64,000 nucleotides of DNA from a virus (taxonomy: Duplodnaviria > Heunggongvirae > Uroviricota > Caudoviricetes): IMG/VR virus record IMGVR_UViG_2595698618_000001, positions 79,136 to 143,135 of that record; one strand, written 5' to 3'. The notes below the pieces were generated by a model. The model was not told the origin of the DNA. It saw only the letters and a list, made by a program, of their open reading frames with translations, and did not search any database. The position numbers and the translations under genes were made by a program. Of the stretch, positions 773-63,250 are shown in pieces; the stretch's first letter is position 1; each line of letters opens with the position of its first letter.

Positions 773-1102
773 CTACGCCTCGGGGCAACTTAACTTTATC
801 GACTGAGCGAGAAACTGCTTCGCATCGTAGAATCCACGACGCGCCTCATCCTCATACTCGTATTGGATGTTGCTCTCCATCTTCTTTTCGTAGTTGGCGA
901 CTGCGTTCAAGCCAGCGCGATAGTCTCCCTCTCCTTTCATATGGCCTTCTATCCCGTTTTGGTAGAATAAACTGCACGGGAATGTGAAGCCTTCGACGTA
1001 TGCTTGTGCCTCTCGGTTGAGGTAGTTGCCTTGTCGTCTAAGGAGATTCCAGATTGCGGTAAATTCGCGTACTCGAATCTCGAATAGTTCTTTTCTCTCC
1101 AT
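773..1102 (-). CDS. hypothetical protein (109 aa)
   Basis: ORF-track ORF, ATG start. Confidence 0.5.
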   Translation of the reverse strand: MERKELFEIRVREFTAIWNLLRRQGNYLNREAQAYVEGFTFPCSLFYQNGIEGHMKGEGDYRAGLNAVANYEKKMESNIQYEYEDEARRGFYDAKQFLAQSIKLSCPEA

Positions 1103-1224
1103 AGTAGACTATTGGCACTACGGGGACTTAAGTGTTGTCAAAAGAATAGTCGCGGTCTGCGCCTTGGCCCACCTGCGTTTTTGCAGGGTTTGTTGATTGT
1201 TAGTCTGTGCGTGTAGGGGAGATG

Positions 1225-1755
1225 TTACATCCCGCCGAAGCGGGCGTTCATCTCCTGAGTCGTGGCGTCGGGGATGGGGGCGTGGCTCGCGGTAGACGCG
1301 GCACTTCCCTCATCAACTCCGAAGTCGCTACCACGTCGTGCGAGTTCGTTCACACCACAATGGCAGTTCGGGTTGTAGTCCATCGACGCGGCCTCGTCGT
1401 CCGACATATCGAACGAGTCAGAGGCACGGTGCTTGTTGGTGTCGTGCATATGGGCAAGCCCACACGTCGGACACTTGAAGCCAGTCACGTCAAAGCCCTC
1501 AGCCATCGAATCGAGAGCGGAGTGAAGGCCCGATGCCTCAACCTCCGTACTACCCTCGACCTGAATGGAGGACTGCATTTCCTCCTGCATCTGCTCAACT
1601 TCAGTCTGCTCAACTTCCTGAATGGTCTTCTGCATTACTTTGTCACCTCTATCTATTTCTTGTAGCCGTAGGTACTTAAGTGTTTCGTTTTGGCACTCTT
1701 TCTCACGGCTTGTCGAGTCCACTCGATTGTCGTCATCGTGGTCATACTCATACAT
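1225..1755 (-). CDS. acidic protein with Cys/His zinc-binding motifs (CPTCG...HCG)
   Basis: ORF-track ORF, ATG; CxxC + HxH motifs in translation. Confidence 0.5.
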   Translation of the reverse strand: MYEYDHDDDNRVDSTSREKECQNETLKYLRLQEIDRGDKVMQKTIQEVEQTEVEQMQEEMQSSIQVEGSTEVEASGLHSALDSMAEGFDVTGFKCPTCGLAHMHDTNKHRASDSFDMSDDEAASMDYNPNCHCGVNELARRGSDFGVDEGSAASTASHAPIPDATTQEMNARFGGM

Positions 1756-1958
1756 TAGTCCTCTCTACCCTTAAGTCTATCGAACACATTCCCGTGAATC
1801 GCCTCATACATCAGCATATTCCCAAGAATGTAGTAATCAATCGAACCATCCTCCATATCCTCAAACCAATCCACAAACGCATCCTCCTTCGACCTACGAG
1901 CCACACGATTCGCCCCATCAAACGCACCCTTCACGAAGTCTTCTTTCTCAACTCTCAT
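1755..1958 (-). CDS. hypothetical small protein
   Basis: ORF-track ORF 1755..1967 begins at GTG; in-frame ATG at 1958 forms ATGA overlap with stop of upstream gene. Confidence 0.4.
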   Translation of the reverse strand: MRVEKEDFVKGAFDGANRVARRSKEDAFVDWFEDMEDGSIDYYILGNMLMYEAIHGNVFDRLKGRED

Positions 1959-2188
1959 TCCATCCACCGTCTAATGGCTTCGTTCTGCTCACTATCTGAC
2001 ATTTCTTGGAAGATTGGATGCCCCTGTGCTATCAGGAGTTGGTCTGCCATCATCCAACCAGCGATATATGCCTCCTCGTAGTCACTTATCAGAGCGTCTT
2101 TAGGGTCCGAGCAGTATCCCTTTGCTGACGCCATCTTCATACCCCACGCAAAGCCTTCAACGAATTGCTCGAACTCAAGAGCCGTCAT
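1955..2188 (-). CDS. hypothetical protein (77 aa)
   Basis: ORF-track ORF, ATG. Confidence 0.45.
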   Translation of the reverse strand: MTALEFEQFVEGFAWGMKMASAKGYCSDPKDALISDYEEAYIAGWMMADQLLIAQGHPIFQEMSDSEQNEAIRRWME

Positions 2189-2804
2189 AGTCTCCCCACT
2201 TGTATTCGTATCCCGGTACAGGCGAGTCTACTGAATCGTAGAAGTCGCTCTGTGAGCGTTTGTTGAAACAAACTCCTCGATAATCTTGGCAGGTGTCAAA
2301 GCCATATGAATTTAACCAGTCACGCAATTCCTCAGAGTTTTCATTGTAACTTGCTATTTGTGGGCGATTGCTTGGTTTTTCCAAATGACCATCGGTGGCA
2401 TACCAATGTTTTAATATTGTTCCTGTTGGTTCTATCTCATTCAACGGGAATTTCTTTTTACCTTTGGGATACCACAAATCACGCATCTCCTTAAATGACG
2501 GATGTGCTACTGTTCTAAGTCTATATTGCAATCCACCAACAGATGTTTCACTTGATACAGGGTGGACCCCGCTCTTAGTAACCAGCCAATCAGGAAATTG
2601 TTCTTCCACATACTGTAGATACTTCTTCTCATTTACTGCAACACCAAACAGCCCACTCTTTTCAATATGTCCATCTCCCATAAGTATACCAGTAACTATT
2701 TCAATTACTTCATCTGATAACTCTGGATATTCACATTCTGTTTGAGCAATATGCATCCCAAGATTCCGCAATCCATCTTTTCCACAATCAGGGCAAGTTT
2801 TCAT
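2175..2804 (-). CDS. LAGLIDADG-type homing endonuclease-like protein with N-terminal zinc finger (MKTCPDCGK...ILMGDGHI...HWYATDGHL)
   Basis: Two LAGLIDADG-like motifs; paralog of 20411..21037; locally AT-rich; start trimmed from ORF-track 2987 to ATG at 2804, which has cgaaagg-TTTATATAG promoter 23 nt upstream. Confidence 0.6.
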   Translation of the reverse strand: MKTCPDCGKDGLRNLGMHIAQTECEYPELSDEVIEIVTGILMGDGHIEKSGLFGVAVNEKKYLQYVEEQFPDWLVTKSGVHPVSSETSVGGLQYRLRTVAHPSFKEMRDLWYPKGKKKFPLNEIEPTGTILKHWYATDGHLEKPSNRPQIASYNENSEELRDWLNSYGFDTCQDYRGVCFNKRSQSDFYDSVDSPVPGYEYKWGDYDGS

Positions 2805-2859
2805 ATGTATTACCATTATGGCTACAACTATATAAACCTTTCGGTATAGCCAGAACGGT

Positions 2860-3642
2860 TTAGTTACCCTGATAATCTCCGGGTTTTGCGTTATTCTTGG
2901 TATCCAAATACAACCAGAATGGCATATCTGGATGGTACTTCGTTCGACCGAGAATCCACTTGACTTTTGCGAGGAACAGCATCTCACGCTCGGTCAACTC
3001 GTGCTTGCTTCCGTTGATGGTCACAGTCACAGGGTCAGGAACGTCACCCGGTCGAAGCATCACCAACTCATACGACTTGTCAGTTTGGACAGCCTGACTA
3101 CCCTGACGCTCGTAGTCTCCCTCGTCGGGGTCGTCGTCTTTCGTGTAGAGATTGCCCTTCCAGTCCACGAGATAGAATCCATCGACCAGCCAGCCGTTCG
3201 CGGCTTTGGTGATGCGCTTCTTATCCGAGGCGCTGAACGTTTCGTAGAGCGCATTGATTAGCGTCTGACGAGCCTGTGTGCTGACAATCTCTCTATGGAC
3301 GCTCAGGATGGTACTCAGGTCGTTGTGTTCAACAACGTCCATCACTCCCTGTAGTACGCTCTCTGCCTGATTCGGCGTAGTCTCGACCGTGTGGCCGCGA
3401 ACTCGAAGCATATACGCATACTCCATTCCCGTAGGTGCGACGATAACTTCAGGGTCGTCGTCATTAAGGATAACAGCGTTATTGCCATTAAGGAACTCGT
3501 ACAGGCCGTGCTTGAATAGTAGGGTGTTCTCGGGAGTTGCGTTCTTCATTTCAGGCTCTCCGTTGTCCCAAATCAGAAGGAACGATTGCAACTCACCCGT
3601 GTTGCGGTCCCTGTTCTCGTCAACGATTTCGTAGTCTCTCAT
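2860..3642 (-). CDS. hypothetical protein (260 aa)
   Basis: ORF-track ORF, ATG. Confidence 0.55.
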   Translation of the reverse strand: MRDYEIVDENRDRNTGELQSFLLIWDNGEPEMKNATPENTLLFKHGLYEFLNGNNAVILNDDDPEVIVAPTGMEYAYMLRVRGHTVETTPNQAESVLQGVMDVVEHNDLSTILSVHREIVSTQARQTLINALYETFSASDKKRITKAANGWLVDGFYLVDWKGNLYTKDDDPDEGDYERQGSQAVQTDKSYELVMLRPGDVPDPVTVTINGSKHELTEREMLFLAKVKWILGRTKYHPDMPFWLYLDTKNNAKPGDYQGN

Positions 3643-24914: not shown

Positions 24915-24950
24915 TCAAATAAGGCTTGAAAGGGGTGACGAGTCCCTTTC
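24915..24950 (+). terminator. hairpin (gaAAGGGgtgacgagtCCCTTtcggg) after gene. An inverted copy of this element is at 47103..47145
   Basis: 6-bp stem directly after stop codon. Confidence 0.3.
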
Positions 24951-25180: not shown

Positions 25181-25855
25181 ATGGAACTGAAAGACCTTGA
25201 AGTACGCAAGATGAACTCGTCTAAGGGGCGAGACTTCATCTTAGAGCATCACTACAGCGGCTCCTGTCACGGAGGCCCTATGTGTTGGGGTTTGTACGAG
25301 CAGGTAGACGAGGAAGACGCTCGCGGTAAGGAGTATAGCGAACGCCTCGTCGGAGTCTGCGCCTTCGCTACCCCAATCAGCGAGAACGTCCGACGCTCTA
25401 TCTGGCGAGACGACGTAGCAGAAGAAATGAAGAATCACGTCACGGAGTTGCATCGACTCGTCACCTTAGACGAGTGCCCAAAGAATACGGAGACGTGGTT
25501 CATCAGCCGCGCCCTCAAGGGATTGAAGGATTACAAAGAGAAGTATAAGGCTGTCATCAGTTTCGCAGATTCCACCGAGGGACACGCTGGCACTATTTAT
25601 CAAGCCAGTAACGCCATTTATTACGGCAGAACCGGAGAGAATACATTCTATCGAGACGGTGATGGCAACCTCCGAGCGCCTCGGCAGAACGGAGTCAACA
25701 TCTCTAAGAAGGAAGCACGAGAGCGAGGCTGGACTCCTGAGAAGCGTAAGGCGAAGCATCGGTATCTATTCCTGCTCCCTGACGCTTACGAAAGCAAGGA
25801 CGACGTTCGAGAGTTACTCGACGTTCCTGAACAAGACTACCCCGAGGGATTATAA
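25181..25855 (+). CDS. hypothetical protein (224 aa)
   Basis: ORF-track ORF. Confidence 0.55.
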   Translation: MELKDLEVRKMNSSKGRDFILEHHYSGSCHGGPMCWGLYEQVDEEDARGKEYSERLVGVCAFATPISENVRRSIWRDDVAEEMKNHVTELHRLVTLDECPKNTETWFISRALKGLKDYKEKYKAVISFADSTEGHAGTIYQASNAIYYGRTGENTFYRDGDGNLRAPRQNGVNISKKEARERGWTPEKRKAKHRYLFLLPDAYESKDDVRELLDVPEQDYPEGL

Positions 25856-26001
25856 TGGCTCCTGACATTTTCATCGCATTCTTAATCATTGGAATGTTCT
25901 TCCCTATCGTGTCGCTTATTGGAGCAATCCTGCTATTCCTCGATGGATTCGGCGGGGCGGCTCTCATACTGTTCGTTTGGTGGCTCTTGTGGGAAGAATG
26001 A
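25855..26001 (+). CDS. micro membrane protein (48 aa)
   Basis: Hand-found; TAATG junction; hydrophobic. Confidence 0.4.
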   Translation: MAPDIFIAFLIIGMFFPIVSLIGAILLFLDGFGGAALILFVWWLLWEE

Positions 26002-34874: not shown

Positions 34875-35798
34875 ATGGAGAACGTACTTGATTTGTTCTG
34901 TGGCGCAGGCGGTCTGTCCCACGGATTCGAGCAGGCAGGCTATCGAGTCCTCGCAGGAGTAGACGTATGGGACGATGCACTCGAAACGTATCGCCTCAAT
35001 CACCCAAGCGTCGGCCTCGAAGTAGATATGCACACCGTCGAGCCATCGGAACTCCCGCTCTCCAAAGAGCAGGTAGACGTTGTTATTGGAGGCCCACCCT
35101 GCAAGGGCTTCAGTCTTGCAGGAGAACGAGACTCTGACGACGAGCGGAATCAACTCGTCGCACGGTTCCTCGATTACGTGGAGTATTTCGAGCCAGCAAC
35201 GGTTGTAATGGAGAATGTCGTCGGCATCCTCTCGATGGACCTACCCGGCTACGACGGGAGCGTTCCTGATTATATCCACGATAGGCTTCGCTCGATGGGT
35301 TTCGAGACGGACCATCAAACGCTGGACGCAACTAATTATGGTATCGCTCAGACGAGGCGACGTGTGTTCTTCGTTGGAACTCGCGGGCGGTTCCCGTCCT
35401 ATCCGAAGCCCACGACGGCTGATGTTACGATGCCAGTTGCAGGGGTCTTGGAGTATGACTTCACGGGTTTCCCGAATCACACGTACACGAACCATCAGCA
35501 GTCCACGATTGATAAGATGGCCGCCCTCGATTACGAGGAATCCGTGTACGATACATATCAGGAGGCGTGGAAGCGTCTGCATCCGTTGAAGCCTGCACCG
35601 ACGATTAAGGAGAATCATAACGCTCCATTCGTCCACTACTCGGAAGACCGTGTAGGTACTCCCCGAGAGTGTACGGCGATTCAGACCTTCCCAAATAATT
35701 ACGAGTTCCGTGGAACGAAGTCGAGCGTTCTTAAGCAGATTGGCAACGCCGTGCCACCAGAACTCGCACGACACGTTGCGAAAGCCTTAAGTGAATAG
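34875..35798 (+). CDS. dcm: C5-cytosine DNA methyltransferase
   Basis: FCGAGG (motif I), GGPPCKGFS (motif IV PC), ENV (VI), QIGNAVPP (X); start set at agtATG 34875. Confidence 0.85.
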   Translation: MENVLDLFCGAGGLSHGFEQAGYRVLAGVDVWDDALETYRLNHPSVGLEVDMHTVEPSELPLSKEQVDVVIGGPPCKGFSLAGERDSDDERNQLVARFLDYVEYFEPATVVMENVVGILSMDLPGYDGSVPDYIHDRLRSMGFETDHQTLDATNYGIAQTRRRVFFVGTRGRFPSYPKPTTADVTMPVAGVLEYDFTGFPNHTYTNHQQSTIDKMAALDYEESVYDTYQEAWKRLHPLKPAPTIKENHNAPFVHYSEDRVGTPRECTAIQTFPNNYEFRGTKSSVLKQIGNAVPPELARHVAKALSE

Positions 35799-41911: not shown

Positions 41912-42130
41912 ATGCCACGACAGACTGAACTTCACCACGACGTTGAGGGCAACGGAGTCCTCGGAGTCCACGTCAAACTCGACCGAACGAGTATGCCCTA
42001 CACAGTAGCCACGTTCGACGGAAACGAACGGCTATCCTCGTGGAAGGCGGCGTTGCAGAAGGACGACGAGATACTATTCGCCCAAGGCGTCCTCGCTGGC
42101 AAAACCGGAGAACAGGAGAGCAATTGGTAA
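41912..42130 (+). CDS. hypothetical protein
   Basis: ORF-track ORF. Confidence 0.5.
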   Translation: MPRQTELHHDVEGNGVLGVHVKLDRTSMPYTVATFDGNERLSSWKAALQKDDEILFAQGVLAGKTGEQESNW

Positions 42131-43956: not shown

Positions 43957-44195
43957 TGCCAGAAATAACCTTCGGGCCAAGCGCAACCGAAACAATACTC
44001 GAAGTCTTCAACTGGCACGTCGATTCAGACGGATACGTGCGTGACGAAAACGGCGAGTACGCACCCGTCAAGGGAGACTCAAAGCGCGTCACCAAAGAAC
44101 ACGTCGGCGGCATCGTAAAAGGCGACGACGGAGAACCCGTAATACTCCGCGACAACTTTTGCGATATAGTCGATTACGTCGAAGACGAACGATAG
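43956..44195 (+). CDS. hypothetical protein
   Basis: ORF-track ORF. Confidence 0.5.
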   Translation: MPEITFGPSATETILEVFNWHVDSDGYVRDENGEYAPVKGDSKRVTKEHVGGIVKGDDGEPVILRDNFCDIVDYVEDER

Positions 44196-44225
44196 ACTTA
44201 AGTAGATACCCAAGTAAGTAAGAGT

Positions 44226-44690
44226 ATGGACGTAAACACTCGAACGCAGAACGAAGCCCGCCGCATCATCGAGGTAAACGACGTAGAGTTCTACGTTGAA
44301 AACCTCGTTCAACCCCTCGGCTGGCTACGCCACGGCTCAATCAAGGACGACCTCGTTGACACGAGCGTACTCCGTCGAATGAAAGAAGCCGGACTCGTCA
44401 GATACGACGACGGCACTCGAATGATGAGCCAAGACACCGGCCCGGCAAAATGGCACGACGTAGACGGCCAATGCCGAGAACTGTTCGATGAATTAAACGA
44501 ACCATACTGCCGCCTTCGACCAAAGGTAGAAACAGTCGGCCAAAACAAGTTCGGAATGTTTGACGAGAACGAAGACCCACAAGCACGACGAAAAGCAGAA
44601 CAAGTCCTCGCCAAACTCGAAGAACGCAACCCCGACGTAAAATTCAAATTAGACGAAGAAGAACTAAACGCAATCCCCATCCGAGAATAA
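44226..44690 (+). CDS. hypothetical protein
   Basis: ORF-track ORF. Confidence 0.5.
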   Translation: MDVNTRTQNEARRIIEVNDVEFYVENLVQPLGWLRHGSIKDDLVDTSVLRRMKEAGLVRYDDGTRMMSQDTGPAKWHDVDGQCRELFDELNEPYCRLRPKVETVGQNKFGMFDENEDPQARRKAEQVLAKLEERNPDVKFKLDEEELNAIPIRE

Positions 44691-44728
44691 ATCGACAGAC
44701 TTAAGTAGATACCCGAGAAAGTAAGAGT

Positions 44729-45127
44729 ATGGCACGAATCGAAGAAGACACGACCCACGAAGTGTATCTAACCGACGAGGAAATGCACCGAATCAACGAA
44801 GGCGGCGTAGCCGTCTTCGAGATTAACGGAGACGAAGTTAGAGTCGGCGCAGAACCGGAATACTTTGAAGAACCAGACTACCCCGTACCCAACGATGGAA
44901 TGCACGTCTTCGACCCCGAAGCCCCACGTTGGTCAAGCGGCGAGATGGAGGTTATCGAAGTGACCGACGTTCCAGCAGACGAATACGAAATTACGGTTAA
45001 GGGACGTGACACGACAGTATTCCGAGAGAATCCATCCTGCGACCCCGATGCTCCGGTCGTGCGAGCGCGGTACGTCGCTGGTTCCGACCGCATATACGCA
45101 TTCCCGTGCGACAGGCTCGATTATTAA
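44729..45127 (+). CDS. hypothetical protein
   Basis: ORF-track ORF. Confidence 0.5.
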   Translation: MARIEEDTTHEVYLTDEEMHRINEGGVAVFEINGDEVRVGAEPEYFEEPDYPVPNDGMHVFDPEAPRWSSGEMEVIEVTDVPADEYEITVKGRDTTVFRENPSCDPDAPVVRARYVAGSDRIYAFPCDRLDY

Positions 45128-45206
45128 CCAAAGTCTGTCAATTATTAAGACCTTCGCACAACACTCGAATAGACAGACTTAAGTGATAGTGCGATAAAGA
45201 CTAAGT

Positions 45207-45368
45207 ATGCACAAATGCGAAGAATGCGGGCGTCGAATTAGCCCGATGCAAGCCAACGACTCGTACAACGCGACGTACACAATTGGCGACGAGGGACGCT
45301 ACCTCTGCCGAAAGCATTTAGACCAGCACCGCCGGAACGAGTGGAACGAGGAAAGCCGATGGGTTTAA
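45207..45368 (+). CDS. zinc-ribbon mini-protein (53 aa)
   Basis: CEECGRR...CRKH. Confidence 0.4.
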   Translation: MHKCEECGRRISPMQANDSYNATYTIGDEGRYLCRKHLDQHRRNEWNEESRWV

Positions 45369-45392
45369 GTAGATACGGAGACAAGTAGAAGT

Positions 45393-45569
45393 ATGTACGT
45401 TACAGTCAAGATGCCGGACGGAGAAGCGCAGAACTTCAACCACGTCTCGTCCTTCTTCGATAGGGGCGACGTGCTTGAGTTGAACTTCCACGGACCTGAC
45501 GGCGAGGAATACGGCGAGCAGGACATTCCCGGTGGCGTGGTCTACTACGCCGAGGCGGAGGACCGCTAA
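45393..45569 (+). CDS. hypothetical mini-protein (58 aa)
   Basis: Hand-found; promoter upstream. Confidence 0.4.
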   Translation: MYVTVKMPDGEAQNFNHVSSFFDRGDVLELNFHGPDGEEYGEQDIPGGVVYYAEAEDR

Positions 45570-45850
45570 TGCGAGAACGCCTGACGGCAGACGAGGTTCG
45601 CAACGTCGAGGAAGGTGAGCATTTGGTCGTCCACCTCCACGAAGACGAATACTGGATGATGGGCGAAGGGAAAGTGCAGTACGTCTCGAAAGAGCAGAAC
45701 GGCGATACACGAATTAGCCTGCGTAGCCTGACTGGACACTCGTGTACGCTCAAAGTCCCAAGTGACGCCCGCGCTGGATTGAGGTTCGACGGTGCGGCTC
45801 GCGGTAGTCGAAACCTCCGAGTCAAGAGAGTCGAGTCGAAAGGGTTATAA
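45569..45850 (+). CDS. hypothetical protein
   Basis: TAATG-coupled. Confidence 0.5.
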   Translation: MRERLTADEVRNVEEGEHLVVHLHEDEYWMMGEGKVQYVSKEQNGDTRISLRSLTGHSCTLKVPSDARAGLRFDGAARGSRNLRVKRVESKGL

Positions 45851-45872
45851 GGATAGCCGCCCTACTAAGAGT

Positions 45873-46070
45873 ATGAAGGGAGAAGACTTCGACGCGATAA
45901 TCGCACGGCTCAACGAACTACAGGAGGAAGCGATTGAAGAACGCGAAGAACACGAGGGACCGAACGGCGAACCCACGTCCAAAGGAATGTATTTCCTCGG
46001 CAAAGACGTGGGCATCGCTCGGGCGAAAGCAGTCCTGCGAGAACGCATCGACGTAGAACGACAGCCTTAA
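45873..46070 (+). CDS. hypothetical protein
   Basis: agtATG. Confidence 0.45.
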   Translation: MKGEDFDAIIARLNELQEEAIEEREEHEGPNGEPTSKGMYFLGKDVGIARAKAVLRERIDVERQP

Positions 46071-46094
46071 GTAACCATAACACCTACTAAGAGT

Positions 46095-46247
46095 ATGAAG
46101 GACGCAACCCTCGAACTACACGGCGGCTTCGCTGGCGCAAAACTCGTGCTGACTAATCCCGAGACGGGCGAGGGAACGGTAGTCAACGTAAGCCCGAGCG
46201 TCACGCGAGAAATTGAGAGCATCTTTGAATTTGATGCACCCGAGTAA
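46095..46247 (+). CDS. hypothetical mini-protein (50 aa)
   Basis: Hand-found; promoter. Confidence 0.4.
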   Translation: MKDATLELHGGFAGAKLVLTNPETGEGTVVNVSPSVTREIESIFEFDAPE

Positions 46248-46309
46248 TACTCGCTCGTGGGAGGCCACGGGATGAACAGACTTAAGTAATACCACGATAA
46301 AGACTAAGT

Positions 46310-46519
46310 ATGAACGTAGACGCAATAGAACACCACCTCAACGAGAACGACTACACATACAACCTAAGCGAAGACGGCTTCGACATACTCGACCCTCACC
46401 TGACAAGCGATACCCTACTCGAAGTCGGGGCCTGCGACGGCACGGTACTCCACCGAGCAATCGGCTTCCGAATCGTGGATAAGGAGTATGCCGAGACTCT
46501 GACAAGTGGTGAAACCTAA
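46310..46519 (+). CDS. hypothetical protein
   Basis: ORF-track ORF. Confidence 0.5.
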   Translation: MNVDAIEHHLNENDYTYNLSEDGFDILDPHLTSDTLLEVGACDGTVLHRAIGFRIVDKEYAETLTSGET

Positions 46520-46671
46520 TCCGACAATAGGAGGTTTGAGGCTTACGAAATGGTTAAAACATCGAGTTTTCACCCATTATATAAGTCTTACGGTAAATAT
46601 AGAATTAGGCCCTTGCACCTCTCAGGACCCTGACAAACGAAAGGCTTAAGCCTGAATGAAGGTGTTTAGAA

Positions 46672-46775
46672 TCCGACAATTGACGAACTCGACTTCGACT
46701 AAACGGCGACTGTCGAAAAGGCGACACGTTGATTGACGAAATAGCGACAGGTCAAGTCTTCGACAAGAAGGAAAT
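46672..46775. promoter_or_regulatory. cluster of ≥8 TCGACA / TGTCGA hexamers in a ~400-bp noncoding island (candidate origin / regulator-binding region)
   Basis: Direct reading: ccgacaat, ctcgac, ttcgact, ctgtcgaaa, gcgacac, gcgacagg, ttcgacaag. Confidence 0.35.
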
Positions 46776-47308
46776 TGTCAAAGGCTTGGCCTATTTTTCG
46801 ACCACGTTTATTTCATGATGAAAGTGTCAGAAATCATGGAAGCGGCATGAGGAGTCTTATGGTATATAAAGATTGCGCCGAGCGCCGACCTCGCAAGAGT
46901 TAAGTAGTCACCCCTCCTACTAAGAGTATGAACACCTTAGACAAGATGGAGGCCGCGTTGAATCGCCAATTGGAAAAAGTGGGCGAGCATTCGGCAAGTC
47001 TTGAGCCACGGGTTAGGGGATGACAGCACCACACTACCTATCATATGATGCACCCCTATGGAGAGTATCCACTATCATATGACTACCACATATACAAAAC
47101 TCTCCCAAGGGAACCCTTTCGGGATACCCGTCACCCCTTCCAAGCCTTGTATAATATATGGGGCTACAGGTACTTAAGTCTTTCGGTCCCACGATTGACG
47201 AAGGGTATTTCGATAATTGTCTAATCGGTGGCTTTATATACCAAAAGGCTCGCCTTGCCCCGAAGGGCGAATCGACAGGTTTATAAGGATGTACCCCCTA
47301 CTATGGGT

Positions 47309-47521
47309 ATGGAAGGAAATTCCAACTCCGACGAGGAACAGGTTACGATGAAGCCCGTCTACGAGTTTACGTGGAGCGACGGTTCCACTCGGCGTACCGA
47401 CGAACTCGAAAACGACGGCCCTCACTTCCGCGAGGAGGGTGTCGAGTGTCTCGCGGCGATGGGTCGAGAAGACCCTGATTGCGAGGTGAAGATGGTTGGG
47501 CTTCAGCAGATTGGAGCCTAA
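47309..47521 (+). CDS. hypothetical protein
   Basis: agtATG inner start; degenerate copy of array repeat upstream (47225..47290). Confidence 0.45.
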   Translation: MEGNSNSDEEQVTMKPVYEFTWSDGSTRRTDELENDGPHFREEGVECLAAMGREDPDCEVKMVGLQQIGA

Positions 47522-47559
47522 CCGGAACCTTTAAGTAGTGGGAAGCCGTATCATAGTGT

Positions 47560-47841
47560 ATGGCGACTACTGCCAACAACAATTCGAGTGACGAGGTACA
47601 GTACGAACCTCTCGTGATGCTCACGGTCGAGCCTGACGGGACTGGTCGGTTCACGGTTAGCGTGGACGAGGAGGACCACAGGTTTGAAGTAGTTGCGGAA
47701 GCGGGGAGTGTCGAGATTGAGTATATCGAGACTCTGAGTTGGCGTGGACAGATTCGGACGAGCGACCCTGACGACGAGGTATACGACGTTCTGACCTCAA
47801 GTGAGGAGTTTCAGGACTTCGTGCAGGGCGTCCTCAACTAA
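47560..47841 (+). CDS. hypothetical protein
   Basis: ORF-track ORF. Confidence 0.5.
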   Translation: MATTANNNSSDEVQYEPLVMLTVEPDGTGRFTVSVDEEDHRFEVVAEAGSVEIEYIETLSWRGQIRTSDPDDEVYDVLTSSEEFQDFVQGVLN

Positions 47842-47886
47842 GGGCATACCGGAACCCTTAAGTCAATCCGGTGCGTATACAATAAT

Positions 47887-48261
47887 ATGAGTCAAGCACT
47901 ACAGTCGAGGCAGGAGCGAGCAGAGGAGATTACGTTTGAAGACATTCGCGTTATTGATAACGGCGATGGCGCGACTGTGTTCGAGGTGGATGCTGTCAAC
48001 GAGGAGGGGTATCTTCGAGAGAACCTGACCCTCATTCCGGGCATCCGTTACGAAGCGACTAAGGACGTTCGGTATCGTCACGACGAGGGTGTTATCGGGA
48101 AGTATACCCGTGCCCTCATTCGAGAGAACAGCACCGCAAGAGAGGAACTGCTGGCCTTCATCGAGGAGGAGCGCGACGAACTTCAGGAGAAGATTACGGA
48201 ACTGTCGGAGAAGGACACGCGCCTGATGGTCGCGGCAGTCGAAGCACGCGACTCGCAGTAG
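47887..48261 (+). CDS. hypothetical protein
   Basis: ORF-track ORF. Confidence 0.5.
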   Translation: MSQALQSRQERAEEITFEDIRVIDNGDGATVFEVDAVNEEGYLRENLTLIPGIRYEATKDVRYRHDEGVIGKYTRALIRENSTAREELLAFIEEERDELQEKITELSEKDTRLMVAAVEARDSQ

Positions 48262-48397
48262 GATAGGTCGAGAAACAAACACTTTTTCTGCAAGGGGAGT
48301 TACCCCTACTTAAATCTTTTCGCCACGGGGAGTCTGCCATTACTTAACTCTTACCGAAAGGTTTAAGTAGTAGCAAGCCCTCTGTAAGTACGTAATT

Positions 48398-48619
48398 ATG
48401 ACTGAAGAAAATGACCCTGCTCCGGCGATGGAACTTGATTTTGGAATTGGACGTATTTACGTAAAGGGAGACGAGGACACGTCTTTTGAAGAAGTAGTTG
48501 ATGAATTTAACCGTCAGAAGGATGATATGACTGAGACGATTCAGGAGTTGAAGGAGTTTGACTACGAGTTGCGGGAGGAGTACGATACAGAGACTCCGAG
48601 CGGTCCTTCGTTCTCGTAA
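48398..48619 (+). CDS. acidic hypothetical protein
   Basis: Promoter tTTAAGTAg 27 nt upstream. Confidence 0.5.
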   Translation: MTEENDPAPAMELDFGIGRIYVKGDEDTSFEEVVDEFNRQKDDMTETIQELKEFDYELREEYDTETPSGPSFS

Positions 48620-48788
48620 GCGACTCTCCTTTTTCGATTGGTGGAACTACGAATAACCCAATAGCGATTGCTGGAATGCCGACTACAGCGACTACGGCAA
48701 TTCCCGTCGCGCCAATTAGCGAAATGGCGACTGCGGTTCCAATTAGCGACAAGCCGACTATACCCAAGATTGCATCATAAACCTGCAT
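48507..48788 (-). CDS. membrane protein (convergently overlapping previous gene)
   Basis: Start MQVYDAIL has gcgaaaccTTTTTATAG promoter 24 nt upstream; 3' end overlaps plus-strand gene by ~110 nt. Confidence 0.35.
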   Translation of the reverse strand: MQVYDAILGIVGLSLIGTAVAISLIGATGIAVVAVVGIPAIAIGLFVVPPIEKGESLTRTKDRSESLYRTPPATRSQTPSTPESSQSYHPSDG

Positions 48789-49236
48789 ACAGTATACTAC
48801 GCGGGCCAACTATAAAAAGGTTTCGCTTTACGTACCCATAACTTATGAGTGACAGAAGCCCGTAGCGGGTTCTGCCAGAACTATGTTAGTTCTGGTCGCT
48901 CGTCAGAGCCAGCCAAATTGCGAACAGGATGACGAACAGGACTATCACCTCTACCACGGCATCACCTTCTGGTAGAGCATTCGGAGAGCGAAACGAATTT
49001 GGGGAAGGCTATGCGGCGTTAATAGGACGAGTAGTTCACCTGTTGCTTGGAGTTCGTTCATACTCATACTACGGGAGTGCCAACCTTAAACCTTTCGCAT
49101 CTACTGCCTCGACCCATACCTTTAAGTAGTAGGTGGCTCCTCATGCGAAAATTGTAAAAAGAGTTACTCTTTTGGGAAATGCCGAATATCGACAGTCGGC
49201 GGATTGGCCTTCCACGCTCGTCGGAAACGTGCGACC

Positions 49237-49485
49237 TTAATTCGACAATACGCTACGAGCCTTTTCGACAGACGGGGCTTGCTTTCCTGCACGAATGAGA
49301 ACACCTCCGTTTAACTCCTGACTGATTTCCGACAGGGGCTTGACGTATTCGTGATAGCCGTCTTTGGTCTTTTCAGCGACACGAACCTCGCCGTTAGCCG
49401 AATCGCTGATTATAGCCATAGCGACGACACCTTCGCCGTTGCCTTTGACTCCCTTGAACACGTCGAGTTTCTGGAATCCTTCCAT
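49237..49485 (-). CDS. array gene: hypothetical protein
   Basis: ATG + promoter gaaacCCTTAAGTC 22 nt upstream. Confidence 0.5.
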   Translation of the reverse strand: MEGFQKLDVFKGVKGNGEGVVAMAIISDSANGEVRVAEKTKDGYHEYVKPLSEISQELNGGVLIRAGKQAPSVEKARSVLSN

Positions 49486-49542
49486 ACTCGTAGTAGGGTA
49501 GCGACTGACTTAAGGGTTTCGATGCATTGGCTAATCGGTACA

Positions 49543-49596
49543 CTTATATACTTAAGCACTCCCCGTGCCACGAGGAGTATACCACTATAAAAAGGA
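49543..49596. repeat. array repeat copy 1 (TATA-like + palindrome CTCCCCGTGcCACGAGGAG + TATACCACTATAAAAAGG)
   Basis: Direct reading. Confidence 0.8.
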
Positions 49597-49619
49597 TTCG
49601 GTCTTACTCCGAGGTGGCC

Positions 49620-50048
49620 TTACTGGAGGAGGCCAGCCGCTTCGTCCTGCATCTCGGTATCTTCGCTCTCCTCCTCGAAGTCTTCCTCGGTGGCTCCGGC
49701 GAGGGAGAAGGGAATCTCCTGCGGGAAGTCGTCGGGGTCGGCGTCACCGTCAACGCCGAGGGTGTCTCGACTGATGTAGAGTCCCGTGACTGCGCCGGAC
49801 TCGGTTTCGTAGACGCCGTAGTTGCCAGTACCCGAACCGCTGACTGACGCGAGGTGGAGGGTCCCGGTGGCGTTCTCGGAGTTGAGAACGATGTTGAGGA
49901 ACTCGGGGGCCTCCTCTCCGAATGCCTCTCCCACGATGTAGGAGGTGCAGATGGCCTGACCCGAGGCGAGGCTCGGACTGGCGAACTCGTGCTTACCGGC
50001 GCTGGTCGTCTTCTGGTGCTGAGTCGTGATGGTGGTGTTGTCTTCCAT
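49620..50048 (-). CDS. array gene: hypothetical protein (142 aa)
   Basis: ATG + promoter. Confidence 0.5.
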   Translation of the reverse strand: MEDNTTITTQHQKTTSAGKHEFASPSLASGQAICTSYIVGEAFGEEAPEFLNIVLNSENATGTLHLASVSGSGTGNYGVYETESGAVTGLYISRDTLGVDGDADPDDFPQEIPFSLAGATEEDFEEESEDTEMQDEAAGLLQ

Positions 50049-50468: not shown

Positions 50469-51206
50469 TTAGTGGATATGGATAGCCACGTCGGGGCCTT
50501 CGGGGTTAATACAAAGGCGACACTCGCCGCATTGAATACGCTCGTCGGCGGGGACACCTTCGCTTTGCTGGATACTGTTAGGACACCATACGGCGGAGTC
50601 CGGCTTTTCGGCGGCTTCGGGAATAGCCATAAACCGGCGGTTCCCGTAGTCAGCGAGTCCGTTACTCGCGTTAACGGTGAAGTTTTCCGCTAAGTCCCAA
50701 TTGAGTTTATGACTCGCGGAGTACGTGTAAACGTCCACGTCAACTAATTCCGCGATTCTATTCACCTTAATTATGTCGGCGTTACTCCGAAAGTCACCCG
50801 CTTCGGAAAAGCGAATACTGTCGAACGGCTTACGCTTTCGGGAATTGAGACTGTTGAAAGCCTCGGCCCACATTTCAGCCGTCATACAATCCCAAAGGTA
50901 TTCCTGACGACGACGGTACGGGAGCGTTTGGGGATAGATGTTTTCGGCTTTAGCCGCGTAACACGACTCTTTGGGAACCTGACATAAGCCAGTCTCCGAC
51001 TCGCCCGACTCGGCGGTTCCGAAATTCGGACAGTCGTGTGCGCTATTCATATTGAAGATAGCGGTCGTGTTAGTTATCTTAGTGTTCCCCGACGTAATGT
51101 AGTCGCTAAGGATAAACGACCAGTCGCGGTTTGTTTCAGCGTCGGCCATCCGCGAACGAAGGTCGTCAATTCCCGATACGTCGTCTATGTCGTAGTCGTA
51201 GGCCAT
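50469..51206 (-). CDS. array gene: hypothetical protein with C-terminal CxxC
   Basis: Track start 51293 is GTG inside repeat; ATG 51206 has cgaaacACTTATA promoter 23 nt upstream. Confidence 0.5.
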   Translation of the reverse strand: MAYDYDIDDVSGIDDLRSRMADAETNRDWSFILSDYITSGNTKITNTTAIFNMNSAHDCPNFGTAESGESETGLCQVPKESCYAAKAENIYPQTLPYRRRQEYLWDCMTAEMWAEAFNSLNSRKRKPFDSIRFSEAGDFRSNADIIKVNRIAELVDVDVYTYSASHKLNWDLAENFTVNASNGLADYGNRRFMAIPEAAEKPDSAVWCPNSIQQSEGVPADERIQCGECRLCINPEGPDVAIHIH

Positions 51207-53176: not shown

Positions 53177-53224
53177 ACCCTTACTACGGGTCCCCCTATA
53201 TTAAGTCTTGCGGAATCGGTGGCT

Positions 53225-53276
53225 TTATATACCATAAGTCTCCCCTTGCCACGAGGAGTATACGGGTATAAAAAGG
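53225..53276. repeat. array repeat copy 6
   Basis: Direct reading. Confidence 0.75.
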
Positions 53277-60986: not shown

Positions 60987-61068
60987 ACTCTATACAGGAG
61001 GGGAGGGTATATAAGGTTGTCGCATCACATCTAATCTCATGAAATAAACCCTGCAAGTAAGGGTAACG

Positions 61069-62672: not shown

Positions 62673-62979
62673 CACCGCAAAGCCGCCCGCCTTTCTTACA
62701 GGCAGGCCGCGATAAATCCAATCAGGCCGATTCCCCACAACACCGCACCAAACAGGGCAACTTTCACTTGAGGTGTCATTTAGATGATGTGTCGCAGGGG
62801 GTTCTTGTGTTCGCAGGGGAAACCGCCGTCCACCTCAGTCTTGTTACCGCACGGACAAATTGGGTGTCCAAATTGGTCTTGGGTGAAGCCTTCGGGTAGG
62901 AGTTCGCTTGGTATCTCCATACTCTGTATAGTATCGGGGGTATATTAAGCCTTTCGGTTCGCTCGTCCGAGGGAAACGC

Positions 62980-63031
62980 TTATATAGGTGTTTCCTCCTC
63001 GTGCCATGGGGAGTATTCGGGTATATAAACT
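62980..63031. repeat. array repeat copy 26 (most divergent, terminal)
   Basis: Direct reading. Confidence 0.7.
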
Positions 63032-63052
63032 TTCGGGTAGGGGCCAAAATTG

Positions 63053-63122
63053 CGAAATACTGAAATGCTGACAGGATTCCGAAATGTCGAAATACTGAAA
63101 TGTCGAAAAGCCGAAATGCTGA
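63053..63122. repeat. ~8 tandem copies of 8-bp unit (c/t)GAAAT(G/A)(C/T)T
   Basis: cgaaatac tgaaatgc tgac... cgaaatgt cgaaatac tgaaatgt cgaaaagc cgaaatgc tgac. Confidence 0.6.
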
Positions 63123-63126
63123 CTAC

Positions 63127-63250
63127 TTGACAGATTGCTGACTGTCAACCGAATTTCATGAATCAGCCGACATATCAGCGAATTGATATGTTAGCTATTT
63201 CATGATTTTGGGAAGTGTCAATTCCCAAAGGGGTTATCCACCCCCTTTAT
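63127..63250. promoter_or_regulatory. structured noncoding region: palindrome TTGACAGattgctgaCTGTCAA, direct repeats ATTTCATGA, hairpins GGGAAgtgtcaaTTCCC and AAAGGGGttatccaCCCCCTTT followed by TATTTC
   Basis: Direct reading; shares the 'tttcatgat...agtgtca' motif with 46806..46835. Confidence 0.4.

Follow-up and report, generated by a model that had tools for sequence, protein, structure and literature searches.

A conserved non-coding region of HGTV-1 as a candidate transcription-control hub beside its small-gene cassettes

Canonical haloarchaeal leaderless promoters, as studied in Haloferax and Halobacterium, consist of a BRE (CGAAA), a TATA box at about -27 and an A/T element at about -10. 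Promoters are also part of some phage replication origins: oriF and oriG of T4 combine a promoter with an unwinding element and use an R-loop primer, while the primary origin of T7 has tandem promoters and an AT-rich region. Packaging (pac) sites are usually located in or beside terS. Two described viral systems come closest to the locus analysed here. [quoted passage not shown] T4-type phages have PeSL (promoter-early stem-loop) elements, cassettes in which terminator and promoter are combined (Arbiol 2010, PMC2839356; Comeau 2014, PMC4122927), and a PeSL-like motif of HGTV-1, a "TATA box-like region + inverted repeat", was reported by Senčilo 2013 according to the account given in PMC3950731.

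The window, i.e., the whole stretch of 64,000 nucleotides analysed, belongs to Halogranum tailed virus 1 (HGTV-1; KC292026.1), which positions 45500-48500 match at 100%; a window position is the record position minus 79,135. Among archaeal tailed viruses, HGTV-1 is the largest known; the description of a tractable host system is only recent (PMC13532342). According to the annotation tables, 46520-47302 (783 nt; the preliminary island at record 125,655-126,435) is the longest feature-free gap of the genome once the GenBank ORFs gp267 (29 aa), gp268 (31 aa), and gp269 (42 aa) are set aside, the next longest gaps being about 350 nt. Its neighbours are small hypothetical genes. To compare the locus, we used six syntenic metagenomic contigs (70% to 78% nucleotide identity), which were recovered only via a large protein database and exact-protein look-ups. 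A protein-seeded locus search of IMG/VR with gp272 and gp259 gave no relatives, and exact-pattern scans returned 0 matches in IMG/VR (palindrome core and Block A, see below), in a metagenome contig collection (Block A and Block C), and in a species-genome collection (Block A). Distant gp272 homologues (L011-L019) were set aside as uninformative because their gene order differs and Block A is absent. No ORF of the island is conserved as a protein in the six contigs, including gp267-269, so the claim that the interval is non-coding holds in substance. Some of its non-coding blocks, by contrast, match related viruses as well as the flanking genes do, or better.

We consider it probable that the island is a conserved hub of transcription control and punctuation at the edge of a hyperplastic small-gene cassette region. 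The preliminary description had proposed a master regulatory region; sequence and comparison speak for "regulatory" only. The main competing explanation, which we regard as unlikely, is that the island is evolutionary debris left by insertion, deletion, and decay of PeSL-type cassettes, with its promoters and hairpins being relics except for the gp270 promoter. Wherever a genome covers their place, Block A, the T5 run, and Block C are found. The leftward unit is kept as well; the CGAC cluster and the hairpin at 47257 are not.

Promoters were scored with a BRE/TATA PWM trained on 73 sites (range 6.4 to 29.4 bits, median 22), which above 12 bits gave 129 matches in the real genome versus 3 in a shuffled genome. 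The sequence CGAAAGnnTTAAGTA is found genome-wide, with an ATG at offset 36-37 in most matches. Island sites score 26.2(-), 19.8(+), 11.5(+), and 10.4(-) bits; those at 47185(-) and 46892(+) (26.2 and 19.8 bits) reach the strength of gene-proximal promoters. Block A (46568-46624, + strand) is a conserved double-TATA block, TTTCACCCATTATATAAG...TAAATATAGAA...CCCTTGCACCTCT, and a candidate rightward promoter. Its TATA (46594-46604) is followed 19 nt further on by an initiator-like TGCACCTC, and a start site is predicted from the -26 TATA spacing of HF2 (PMC8707807). The direction of Block A is uncertain because the + orientation lacks a CGAAAG-type BRE. The minus strand has a BRE/TATA-like CGTAAGACTTATATA at 46592->46578 (10.4 bits). 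Block A is found in L005, L006, L007, L008, and L022, with 83% to 85% identity in L005, L006, and L022. In L007 it is 85% identical over 54 nt by pairwise BLAST (73% over the 60-nt block of our table) compared to 68% to 74% for the flanking genes, which argues against decaying debris; across the relatives with Block A, the genes flanking the island are 68% to 83% identical. In L020, which lacks Block A, gp270 is up to 85% identical. A paralogue at record 895(-) has the same architecture and the same TATA-to-TGCACCTC spacing, and the two copies co-vary, both reading CCTTGCACCTCT in HGTV-1 and both CTATGCACCTCA in L007/L025, a concerted change that involves two positions in two virus lineages only. 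As bare k-mer repeats, the 12-mer TGTCAGAAATCA and the 13-mer CCCTTGCACCTCT, with 2 occurrences each, are not significant; by our own estimate, chance alone would give hundreds of such pairs, for a 13-mer at two sites roughly 300 genome-wide. The weak + strand BRE/TATA-like site CGAAAGGCTTAAGCC at 46638-46652 (11.5 bits) scores near the 5th to 10th percentile of the training promoters and is not conserved in L005, L006, or L007, a point for the debris explanation. The site is probably non-functional, and we dropped it as the start of a small RNA because of its lack of conservation.

Downstream of Block A, the preliminary description had reported at least 8 TCGACA/TGTCGA hexamers within 100 bp. 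We find only one TCGACA (46760) and one TGTCGA (46711). The looser tetramer CGAC/GTCG occurs 8 times in 46674-46765, at irregular spacings of 16, 6, 11, 5, 10, 23, and 16 nt, and its maximum of 9 per 130 nt compares with a window mean of 1.8, although a coding region at 51089 ties; CGAC is not over-represented in the HGTV-1 genome relative to Markov expectation. The cluster supplies the arms of two hairpins, after which comes a T5 run. Hairpin 1 (46674-46738, + strand), with arms CAATTGACG / CGTTGATTG and inner TTCGAC / GTCGAA, takes up the first half of the cluster. Hairpin 2 (46749-46792) is followed by TTTTT at 46794-46798, and together they are a candidate terminator for rightward transcription: by its sequence, 46749-46798 has the hairpin plus oligo-T that define a factor-independent terminator, even though a simple terminator consensus scan did not flag it. 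Folded as RNA, 46674-46800 reaches a predicted -41.7 kcal/mol (z = -3.95), a value that none of 200 shuffles equalled. Among relatives, the hairpin region is rich in indels, as expected for debris. Deletions remove part of the cluster in L005 and L006, and CTGACA-type hairpins take its place in L007; hairpin 2 is missing from both L005 and L006, hairpin 1 is largely deleted in L005 and stands directly before the T5 run in L006 (z -2.36), and in L007 a different 17-bp hairpin abuts the T5 run (z -3.58). L005 keeps the T5 run only, with a fold no better than shuffles (z +0.8). The body of the RNA that Block A would drive is thus poorly conserved. Against relics, the T5 run is kept at the terminator place in all five genomes that cover it. 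The 35.5-kb + block contains five sense-strand runs of T>=5, four of them intergenic. Such runs are depleted (5 versus 11.2±3.5 expected), but their rarity is weak evidence for termination because A runs are depleted as well (11 versus 35).

Block C (46806-46834, + strand), GTTTATTTCAT-N8-TGTCAGAAAT, is a candidate operator, i.e., a protein-binding site. Its cores, GTTTATTTCAT and TGTCAGAA, are invariant in five genomes (HGTV-1, L005, L006, L007, and L022), which speaks against debris. It is the linear motif that is conserved; a local hairpin noted in the preliminary description is not. The recurrence of TTTCATGAT...AGTGTCA was confirmed at 46811/46823 and 63198/63214, and these are the only two TTTCATGAT in the window. 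The longer GTTTATTTCATGA has 3 occurrences in the genome, all non-coding (window coordinates 46806(+), 61049(-), and 64165(-)). Block C is related to repeats in the terminal control region: L025 has five copies of GTTAATT(T/C)CATG, spaced by approximately 38 nt, upstream of its gp313 homologue, and 3 of the 5 read ...CATGACA. We do not use the rarity of TCATGA as evidence (Markov expectation 8.2, observed 10), since it is a by-product of genome-wide CATG avoidance; what is informative is solely where these sites are placed.

The PeSL-like element of HGTV-1 (TATA - CTCCTCGTGCCACGAGGAG - TATA) has about 21 copies, confined to window 49.5-63.0 kb, and the island holds two degenerate copies in inverted orientation. 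Judged by its sequence, the island is built from repeated regulatory cassettes already published for this virus, with archaeal BRE/TATA promoter modules; most genes of the neighbouring cassette region are preceded by promoter/terminator modules of the same kind. Copies of the element fall in repeat families D2 and D7, and the gp270 promoter in D14. The first degenerate copy opens the cassette head M2 (46844-46930, + strand), which consists of a half palindrome plus TATA (46844-46871), a BRE/TATA CGCAAGAGTTAAGTA (46892-46906), and an initiator plus ATG (46916-46930). It comes after the T5 run at 46794 and before gp268, and its first 26 nt (46844-46869) are an inverted copy, 96% identical to array copy 61095-61070 (E 6e-6). 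The M2 promoter (19.8 bits) has its ATG at the canonical offset of 36. In L005, L006, and L022, the part comprising BRE/TATA and initiator is 71% to 82% identical, compared to only 48% to 52% for the half palindrome and TATA.

The gene behind this promoter, gp268 (46928-47023, + strand; 31 codons), is what remains of a gp264-like cargo gene. At its place, L005, L006, and L022 have an intact 62-aa ORF that is 57% to 63% identical to gp264 (E 1e-19), and the N- and C-terminal parts of gp268 match this ORF in different reading frames. By this alignment, gp268 has demonstrably decayed from a gp264-like gene, in keeping with the debris explanation. The remnant lacks a start codon in L020, where an HNH_3 gene is inserted next to the PeSL-like element, and L007 has no ORF there. 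That cargo varies by genome and that HNH genes insert here also favours debris; the same variation and insertions fit cassette shuffling, with recombination at the PeSL-like modules being deduced from indel patterns.

The second degenerate element (47223-47290) comprises a TATA at 47230-47242, a weak hairpin at 47250-47270, and another TATA, which also serves as the predicted promoter of gp270. The array-repeat copy claimed here is real: over 37 nt, 47223-47259 and 53214-53250 agree at 92% (E 1e-7). The hairpin had been described as GNRA-type; GCCCcgaaGGGC is present at 47257-47268, but its loop, CGAA (UUCG on the minus strand), is not GNRA. Shuffled sequences fold as well as this hairpin (z -0.99 and -0.41), and relatives do not conserve it, another point for relics. 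An intact central inverted repeat is absent from both copies, the one at 46844 keeping the right arm only and the 47250-47270 hairpin being different. The second element stands before gp270, with CCTTATAAACC where a T5 run would be expected. The gp270 promoter, CGACAGGTTTATAAGG, lies at 47273-47311 (+ strand), with the true start codon at 47309: homologues in relatives begin MEGNS/MEQNS, i.e., at the second ATG of annotated gp270. The statement that the island brackets the array is true only loosely, as gp270-273 on the + strand separate it from the first array copy at 49537.

A leftward promoter, CGAAAGACTTAAGTA (47171-47185, minus strand), is directed opposite to the genes of the + block; it has a consensus BRE/TATA and no ORF downstream. 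Its 26.2 bits are at about the 90th percentile of all matches. The sequence CGAAAGACTTAAGTA is identical in L005, L006, and L020, and L007, whose element is at 4698->4590, reads CGAAAGGTTTAAGTA; promoter and leader are kept in all five relatives that cover the place. Conservation at consensus strength without an ORF is a further argument against debris, as is the fact that L025/L026 retain the same orphan unit between their homologues of gp2 and TerS. The predicted ORF-less transcript (47015-47150, minus strand) would be approximately 135 nt, or approximately 175 nt if it reaches the minus-strand T5 run at 46974-46978 (AAAAA on the + strand), which is kept in L020 and absent from L005 and L006. 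Its 5' part (47150->47089) is a paralogue of the Shine-Dalgarno-rich 5' leaders of gp25, gp176, and gp214 (alignment A1). An inverted copy of the 24915 element had been noted here, and this is correct: 47129-47148 is 95% identical to 24940-24921, the 15-nt promoter is identical, and the family has 7 members. The direct repeats reported at 47035 and 47067 exist as a CTATCATATGA pair at 47038 and 47072 (47038-47082, 34 nt apart), inside the predicted transcript, and persist imperfectly in L020, L005, and L006.

Orthologues of the unit align with 73% mean column identity, 1-nt indels, and stops in all frames (alignment A4), and L020 is 83% identical both over the leader (47096-47150) and over 47004-47187 (pairwise), versus 70% to 85% for its genes. 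For five orthologues, RNAalifold predicts 22 pairs with an unfavourable covariation term (+1); the closing helix AGGGGTGAC / GTCATCCCCT is found in HGTV-1 and L020 only, and the leader paralogues of the gp25, gp176, and gp214 family have no shared structure by RNAalifold. Neither candidate RNA of the island has convincing covariation, which again suits debris. Rfam 15 covariance models matched nothing, either within 44000-50000 at E<=1 or across the window at gathering score. Three strong ORF-less promoters share the leader and are counter-oriented to their neighbours (island 47185->47015, record 864(-), and 68357(+)), and both units that were checked, the island one and 864(-), are kept in relatives. 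Such RNAs could mimic the Shine-Dalgarno-rich leaders of gp25, gp176, and gp214 and so titrate whatever binds them.

For the transcription-control reading that we prefer, we infer promoter activity, start sites, transcript ends including the terminator, regulator binding, and the RNAs and their roles from the DNA alone. The modules and their families, the degree to which they are conserved, the lack of a conserved ORF, and the cargo differences among genomes are observed. Rightward transcription of the long + strand enzyme block would end after gp266. Block A, with its TATA and TGCACCTC, would then start a short structured RNA that includes the CGAC hairpins and stops at the conserved T5 run. 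A regulator may bind Block C (GTTTATTTCAT-N8-TGTCAGAA), whose motif family is repeated in the control region that precedes the minus-strand block's first gene. The cassette promoter would drive a variable cargo gene, in HGTV-1 decayed to the 31-codon gp268, and the leftward promoter would make an ORF-less RNA of approximately 135 to 175 nt that converges on, and overlaps, the cargo 3' end, acting either as antisense RNA or through interference by convergent transcription. Finally, the degenerate PeSL-like element and the gp270 promoter would restart rightward transcription.

That the island is a replication origin, as suggested in the preliminary description, seems improbable to us, also in the form of a transcription-activated origin primed via R-loops by promoter-driven RNA. 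The idea draws on several observations: no other non-coding stretch of the genome is as large, and this one contains hairpins, repeats, and conserved blocks; strong ORF-less promoters would give G-rich transcripts; the Block C motif is common to iteron-like repeats of the terminal control region; and a global survey did not find a primase in HGTV-1 (PMC4889955), whose record does include genes for PolB, RNase HI, RadA, and resolvase. Nevertheless, the island has no AT-rich unwinding element. Its GC content is 0.44 to 0.46 versus 0.50 for the genome, and it is not among the 20 lowest-GC 100-nt windows, the lowest of which (0.24) is at record 143,269. Regular iterons are lacking too, with the CGAC tetramers spaced irregularly and their cluster deleted or replaced in relatives. 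The cumulative GC skew, which had been proposed as a check, turns only at 35,173 and 92,326, both gene-strand switches, and has no inflection in the island. Moreover, no replication gene is adjacent, and the leader also precedes ordinary genes (gp25, gp176, and gp214). The narrower idea that the three ORF-less, G-rich, leader-like transcripts are R-loop-primed replication starts is more doubtful still.

There is only a slight chance that the island encodes real micro-proteins, be it gp267, gp268, and gp269 as annotated or others. GenBank does annotate the three ORFs, and a canonical leaderless promoter stands at exactly the right offset before gp268. Protein-level conservation is, however, lacking for all of them. 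In L005 and L006 a deletion removes gp267, an ORF that extends across the candidate terminator hairpin; gp268 has no ATG in L020 and is absent from L007; and gp269, which a 42-nt insertion interrupts in L006, coincides in part with the minus-strand promoter and the PeSL element. When the island was compared with the remainder of the genome by six-frame tblastn, DNA-level repeats were the only matches, and no protein paralogue was found. In the case of gp269, the similarity stems from promoter DNA, LKSFG being the reverse complement of CTTAAGTCTTTCG. The packaging site also proposed earlier is very unlikely: the region is non-coding with repeats and hairpins, but the genome is circularly permuted (PMC3950731), and the terminase genes TerS (gp3) and TerL (gp5) are at record 961-3246, about 19 kb off across the record junction.

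Read as a transcription-control region, an unexplained gap in the map of HGTV-1 becomes a set of specific testable elements, including a hairpin plus T5 candidate terminator. Now open to testing are Block A as a putative promoter class with only two copies per genome, the operator-like Block C motif common to the terminal control region, and three counter-oriented ORF-less units. The annotation of gp267-270 is corrected by the present analysis, and decay or loss of the cargo gene, together with the nearby homing-endonuclease insertions, provides direct comparative support for the earlier proposal that PeSL-like cassettes mediate gene shuffling in this virus, as in T4-type phages. For the search for an origin, the analysis points away from the island; record 143.1-143.4 kb, an AT-rich region with repeats, is the better place to look.

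How does the island compare with the systems introduced above? Its modules at gp268 and gp270, and about 70 HGTV-1 genes, follow the canonical haloarchaeal promoter, with CGAAAG-nn-TTAAGTA 36 to 37 nt before the ATG. By contrast, 47185(-) and Block A have no ORF at leaderless distance, and the 47185(-) unit instead has a leader of roughly 60 nt with three Shine-Dalgarno-like runs. Resemblance to the promoter-dependent origins of T4 and T7 extends to strong ORF-less promoters, tandem arrangement, and G-rich transcripts, but a downstream AT-rich unwinding element is missing, so that this likeness is a lead only. The T4-type PeSL and the PeSL-like module of HGTV-1, of which the island holds the two degenerate copies, are both repeated intergenic units that join a T-run, a stem-loop, and promoter boxes before small ORFs of a variable region. 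Gene content between modules also differs among close relatives, as expected with module-mediated shuffling. T4-type PeSLs have, however, bacterial sigma-70 early promoters, whereas the island has archaeal BRE/TATA; its PeSL-like copies have no intact palindrome, one lacks the T5 run, and, unlike PeSLs, two of its modules have no ORF at all and are nonetheless conserved. HF2 and HGTV-1 belong to different virus families and have no sequence homology. Both nevertheless have a BRE, a CTTTAAGT-type TATA approximately 26 nt before the start site (predicted in HGTV-1), and a conserved initiator, as well as counter-transcripts and outward-facing promoter pairs, the latter two deduced for HGTV-1 from its sequence. 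Promoter activity and start sites are measured in HF2 and predicted in HGTV-1, and relative to HF2 the island adds a candidate hairpin plus T5 terminator and ORF-less units.

Judging by its sequence, the island at window 46520-47300 (record 125,655-126,435) is best explained as a conserved hub of transcription control on the margin of a hyperplastic cassette region. The window is 100% identical to Halogranum tailed virus 1 (HGTV-1; KC292026.1; 143,855 bp), the sole isolate of its family; record positions minus 79,135 give window positions. A plus-strand gene block (gp191-gp273) passes through the island, and small minus-strand genes (gp275-gp314) occupy the DNA from approximately 48.9 kb to the record end. 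Setting aside 3 GenBank ORFs inside the island, gp267 (29 aa), gp268 (31 aa), and gp269 (42 aa), leaves a gap of 783 nt (46520-47302); the gaps ranking next in the annotation tables measure approximately 350 nt.

No relatives came from direct scans for DNA patterns or from protein-seeded scans of IMG/VR; they were reached via gp272 and gp270 homologues in a large protein database. This yielded the syntenic metagenomic contigs L005, L006, L007 (the same as L008), L020, and L022, with gene nucleotide identities to HGTV-1 of 70-78% and a gene-poor island at the equivalent place in each. Alignments A3 and A4, together with a six-way MAFFT alignment, underlie the comparisons. At E<=1e-5, 190 homologues of the small terminase occur on contigs of up to 138 kb, indicating that this "singleton" family has many uncultured relatives; metagenomes also hold near-complete HGTV-1-like genomes, e.g., L023 (JGI 3300055293 Ga0535675_0000040; 133 kb).

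The island was originally described as non-coding, and indeed no annotated ORF is kept as a protein in relatives. The similarity of gp269 to relatives is a by-product of promoter DNA on the opposite strand, and its frame is broken by an insertion in L006; gp267 spans the hairpin of the terminator and has been lost by deletion from L005 and L006. At the place of gp268, L005, L006, and L022 carry an intact 62-aa gene, 57-63% identical to gp264, to which the 2 halves of gp268 align in different frames; from these alignments, gp268 is a remnant of that gene. The same remnant, lacking its start codon, is present in L020, and L007 is empty at this place. For gp270, the annotated ATG (47303) probably lies two codons upstream of the true start (47303-47311), since all relatives start at the equivalent of ATG 47309 (MEGNS/MEQNS), which also agrees with the gp270 promoter spacing.

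CGAAAG-nn-TTAAGTA is found throughout the genome, in most cases with an ATG at offset 36-37, and also upstream of tRNA genes. By its sequence, this is a haloarchaeal BRE/TATA promoter, predicted to give leaderless or near-leaderless mRNAs. A position weight matrix trained on 73 such sites has 129 matches above 12 bits in the genome versus 3 in a shuffled genome. Within the island, the site at 47185(-) has a perfect consensus (26.2 bits) and that at 46892(+) (19.8 bits) places the gp268 ATG at the canonical offset; lower scores are obtained at 46638(+) (11.5 bits) and 46592(-) (10.4 bits). The array element, consisting of a TATA box, the palindrome CTCCTCGTGCCACGAGGAG, and a TATA/T5 box (T5, TTTTT), has approximately 21 copies confined to window 49.5-63.0 kb. 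The array is not new: the HGTV-1 repeat motif has been likened to PeSL (promoter-early stem-loop) terminator/promoter cassettes (PMC3950731). The island holds 2 degenerate copies in opposite orientation, of which the preliminary description correctly listed one and missed the other, inverted at 46844-46869. The gene call of gp312 (-; 62945-63148) is doubtful, because it overlaps a complete PeSL element and the gp311 promoter.

Block A, a double-TATA block at 46568-46624, shares 83-85% identity with its counterparts in L005, L006, and L022; the value for L007 is 85% over 54 nt by pairwise BLAST and 73% over a 60-nt block in the six-way table. Genes in the relatives bearing Block A are 68-83% identical. 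The genome has two copies of CCCTTGCACCTCT, one in Block A and the other at record 895(-), which is 27 nt upstream of the 864(-) promoter. Each site has 2 TATA-like boxes, the second 19-20 nt from TGCACCTC, and a CGAAAG-type site approximately 18 nt beyond TGCACCTC. Both copies read CCTTGCACCTCT in HGTV-1 and CTATGCACCTCA in the L007/L025 virus. The position of TGCACCTC matches that of the conserved "gamma" initiator motif in class I repeats of halovirus HF2, a motif required there for promoter activity (PMC8707807), tentatively suggesting, from 2 positions in 2 lineages, that Block A may be a rightward promoter of a rare class.

A T5 run at 46794 is present in all 5 genomes covering that place. 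Directly 5' of it lies a strong hairpin in HGTV-1 (z -3.95), in L006 (z -2.36), and, with different sequence, in L007 (z -3.58); no strong hairpin before the run was found in L005. The arms of these hairpins account for the "CGAC cluster". The claim of at least 8 TCGACA/TGTCGA hexamers was overstated, as there is one of each; the tetramer CGAC/GTCG has 8 occurrences in 46674-46765, a coding region matches its 130-nt maximum of 9, and CGAC is frequent in this genome anyway.

Block C, a two-core motif at 46806-46834, has cores (GTTTATTTCAT and TGTCAGAA) that alignment shows to be invariant in 5 genomes; the local hairpin proposed there is not conserved in relatives. The motif TTTCATGAT...AGTGTCA is real, at 46811 and 63198. 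Its second site, with a spacer 4 nt longer, lies in window 63040-63250, upstream of the last array copy, together with repeats of (GA)CATTTC(A/G)G / ATTTCGACATTTC and 2 TTCATGA sites. All 3 genomic copies of GTTTATTTCATGA are in non-coding DNA: in Block C, at 61049(-) between the TATA box and promoter of gp305, and at 64165(-) in an AT-rich region upstream of gp313. The equivalent of the latter region in L025 has 5 GTTAATT(T/C)CATG copies at approximately 38-nt spacing, 3 of which continue ...GACA. The simplest reading is one common putative DNA-binding protein for such sites.

The 47185(-) promoter and approximately 135 nt downstream are conserved in L005, L006, L020, and L022, with a diverged form in L007; 1-nt indels and stop codons in all frames indicate that this leftward stretch is non-coding. 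It is, as proposed, a copy of the element at 24915. Seven genome sites share one layout: promoter, approximately 20 nt, AATAAGGAGTGAAAGGGGTGAC, a variable small hairpin, and CGGGAGGATTATTATAT(ATG), with a Shine-Dalgarno-rich leader (AATAAGGAGTGAAAGGGGTGAC ... GGGAGGATTATTATATATG). They lie at record 22567(+), 46905(-), 864(-), 68357(+), 87150(-) (window 8015), 104020(+) (window 24885), and 126320(-) (window 47185). The ATG opens a real gene in 3 (gp25, gp176, and a small membrane protein at window 24968), one copy is upstream of a tRNA, and 3 are ORF-less and oriented against their neighbours (island, 864(-), and 68357(+)). The L007-type virus (L025/L026) also keeps the 864(-) copy, which lies between gp2 and the small terminase gene. 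The family yielded no common secondary structure. The direct repeat CTATCATATGA is also real (47038 and 47072, slightly shifted from the original coordinates), and GCCCcgaaGGGC is present at 47257, with a CGAA rather than GNRA loop and a fold no better than shuffles. Two relatives carry HNH_3 homing-endonuclease genes at different insertion points: in L020 (427-963) the leftward promoter and the PeSL-like element flank the gene, and in L022 (1503-2045) the gp271 and gp272 homologues do. Elsewhere in the record, outside the window, a tRNA-like sequence bearing a T-arm (GAAGGTTCGAGTCCTTC) and not annotated as tRNA (L003 ~25,790-25,860; record ~75,790-75,860, minus strand) lies downstream of a strong promoter at 75889(-).

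Other functions proposed for the island fare less well. A transcription-primed origin stays conceivable, given that a global survey found no primase in HGTV-1 (PMC4889955); nothing here is specific to it. As for an origin in general, cumulative GC skew turns only at gene-orientation switches and not at the island, whose GC content is 0.46 versus 0.50 for the genome and which is not among the 20 lowest-GC windows; its CGAC motifs have uneven spacing and are evolutionarily labile. GC content is lowest (0.24 over 100 nt) at record 143,269, within the terminal region that bears repeats. Record 143,180-143,330 (L001 21180-21330; window 64045-64195), just past the window end, is a stronger candidate than the island for an origin or the main early control region. 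Situated upstream of the minus-strand block's first gene, it contains 2 direct repeats of approximately 33 nt rich in TTCATG half-sites, plus a T8 run; the L025 five-repeat array (3 reading ...CATGACA) is at the same place. A packaging site is disfavoured by terminase genes approximately 19 kb away and a genome reported as circularly permuted (PMC3950731).

HGTV-1 (143,855 bp) contains no GATC, no CTAG, 3 AGCT, and 43 CATG. CATG is absent from record 59,358 to 125,949 (66.6 kb), and 30 of the 43 are in the last 17.3 kb, the first 3 at window 46814, 46835, and 46846, in Block C and the M2 module (the cassette head, 46844-46930). GATC and CTAG are also missing from the close relatives L005, L007, and L025, and not from the distant L011 and L023. 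The pattern resembles avoidance of restriction sites, eased in the cassette region. Annotated on the plus strand, gp274 (48507-48841, 57 aa, very basic) has probably been assigned to the incorrect strand; from an ATG near 48788, a minus-strand ORF codes for a membrane-like protein, and a canonical CGAAAC-CTTTTTATAG promoter lies 30 nt upstream of this ORF. An 85-nt tRNA-Gly(tcc) called by ARAGORN at 41969-42053(-), antisense to gp250, is probably a false positive, since an Rfam gathering scan found no tRNA in the window.

Of the roles first suggested, sequence and comparative evidence favours a regulatory region over an origin or packaging site. The sequences and alignments directly establish which modules are present, how far they are conserved, that no ORF is kept as a protein, and that the cargo varies; promoter activity, transcript ends, and regulatory roles are predicted from them. 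Such a hub would combine a terminator for the upstream block, a rare-class promoter giving a short structured RNA, an operator-like site (Block C), a cassette with decayed cargo, a strong convergent ORF-less unit, and, at its end, a restart promoter for gp270, the transcript ends being those predicted from these modules. The closest experimentally studied parallel is the promoter-bearing intergenic repeats of HF2 (PMC8707807), the promoter activity in HGTV-1 being predicted. On the conceptual side, its nearest counterpart is the PeSL system of T4-type phages, whose cassettes are reported to mediate modular shuffling (PMC3950731; PMC4122927).
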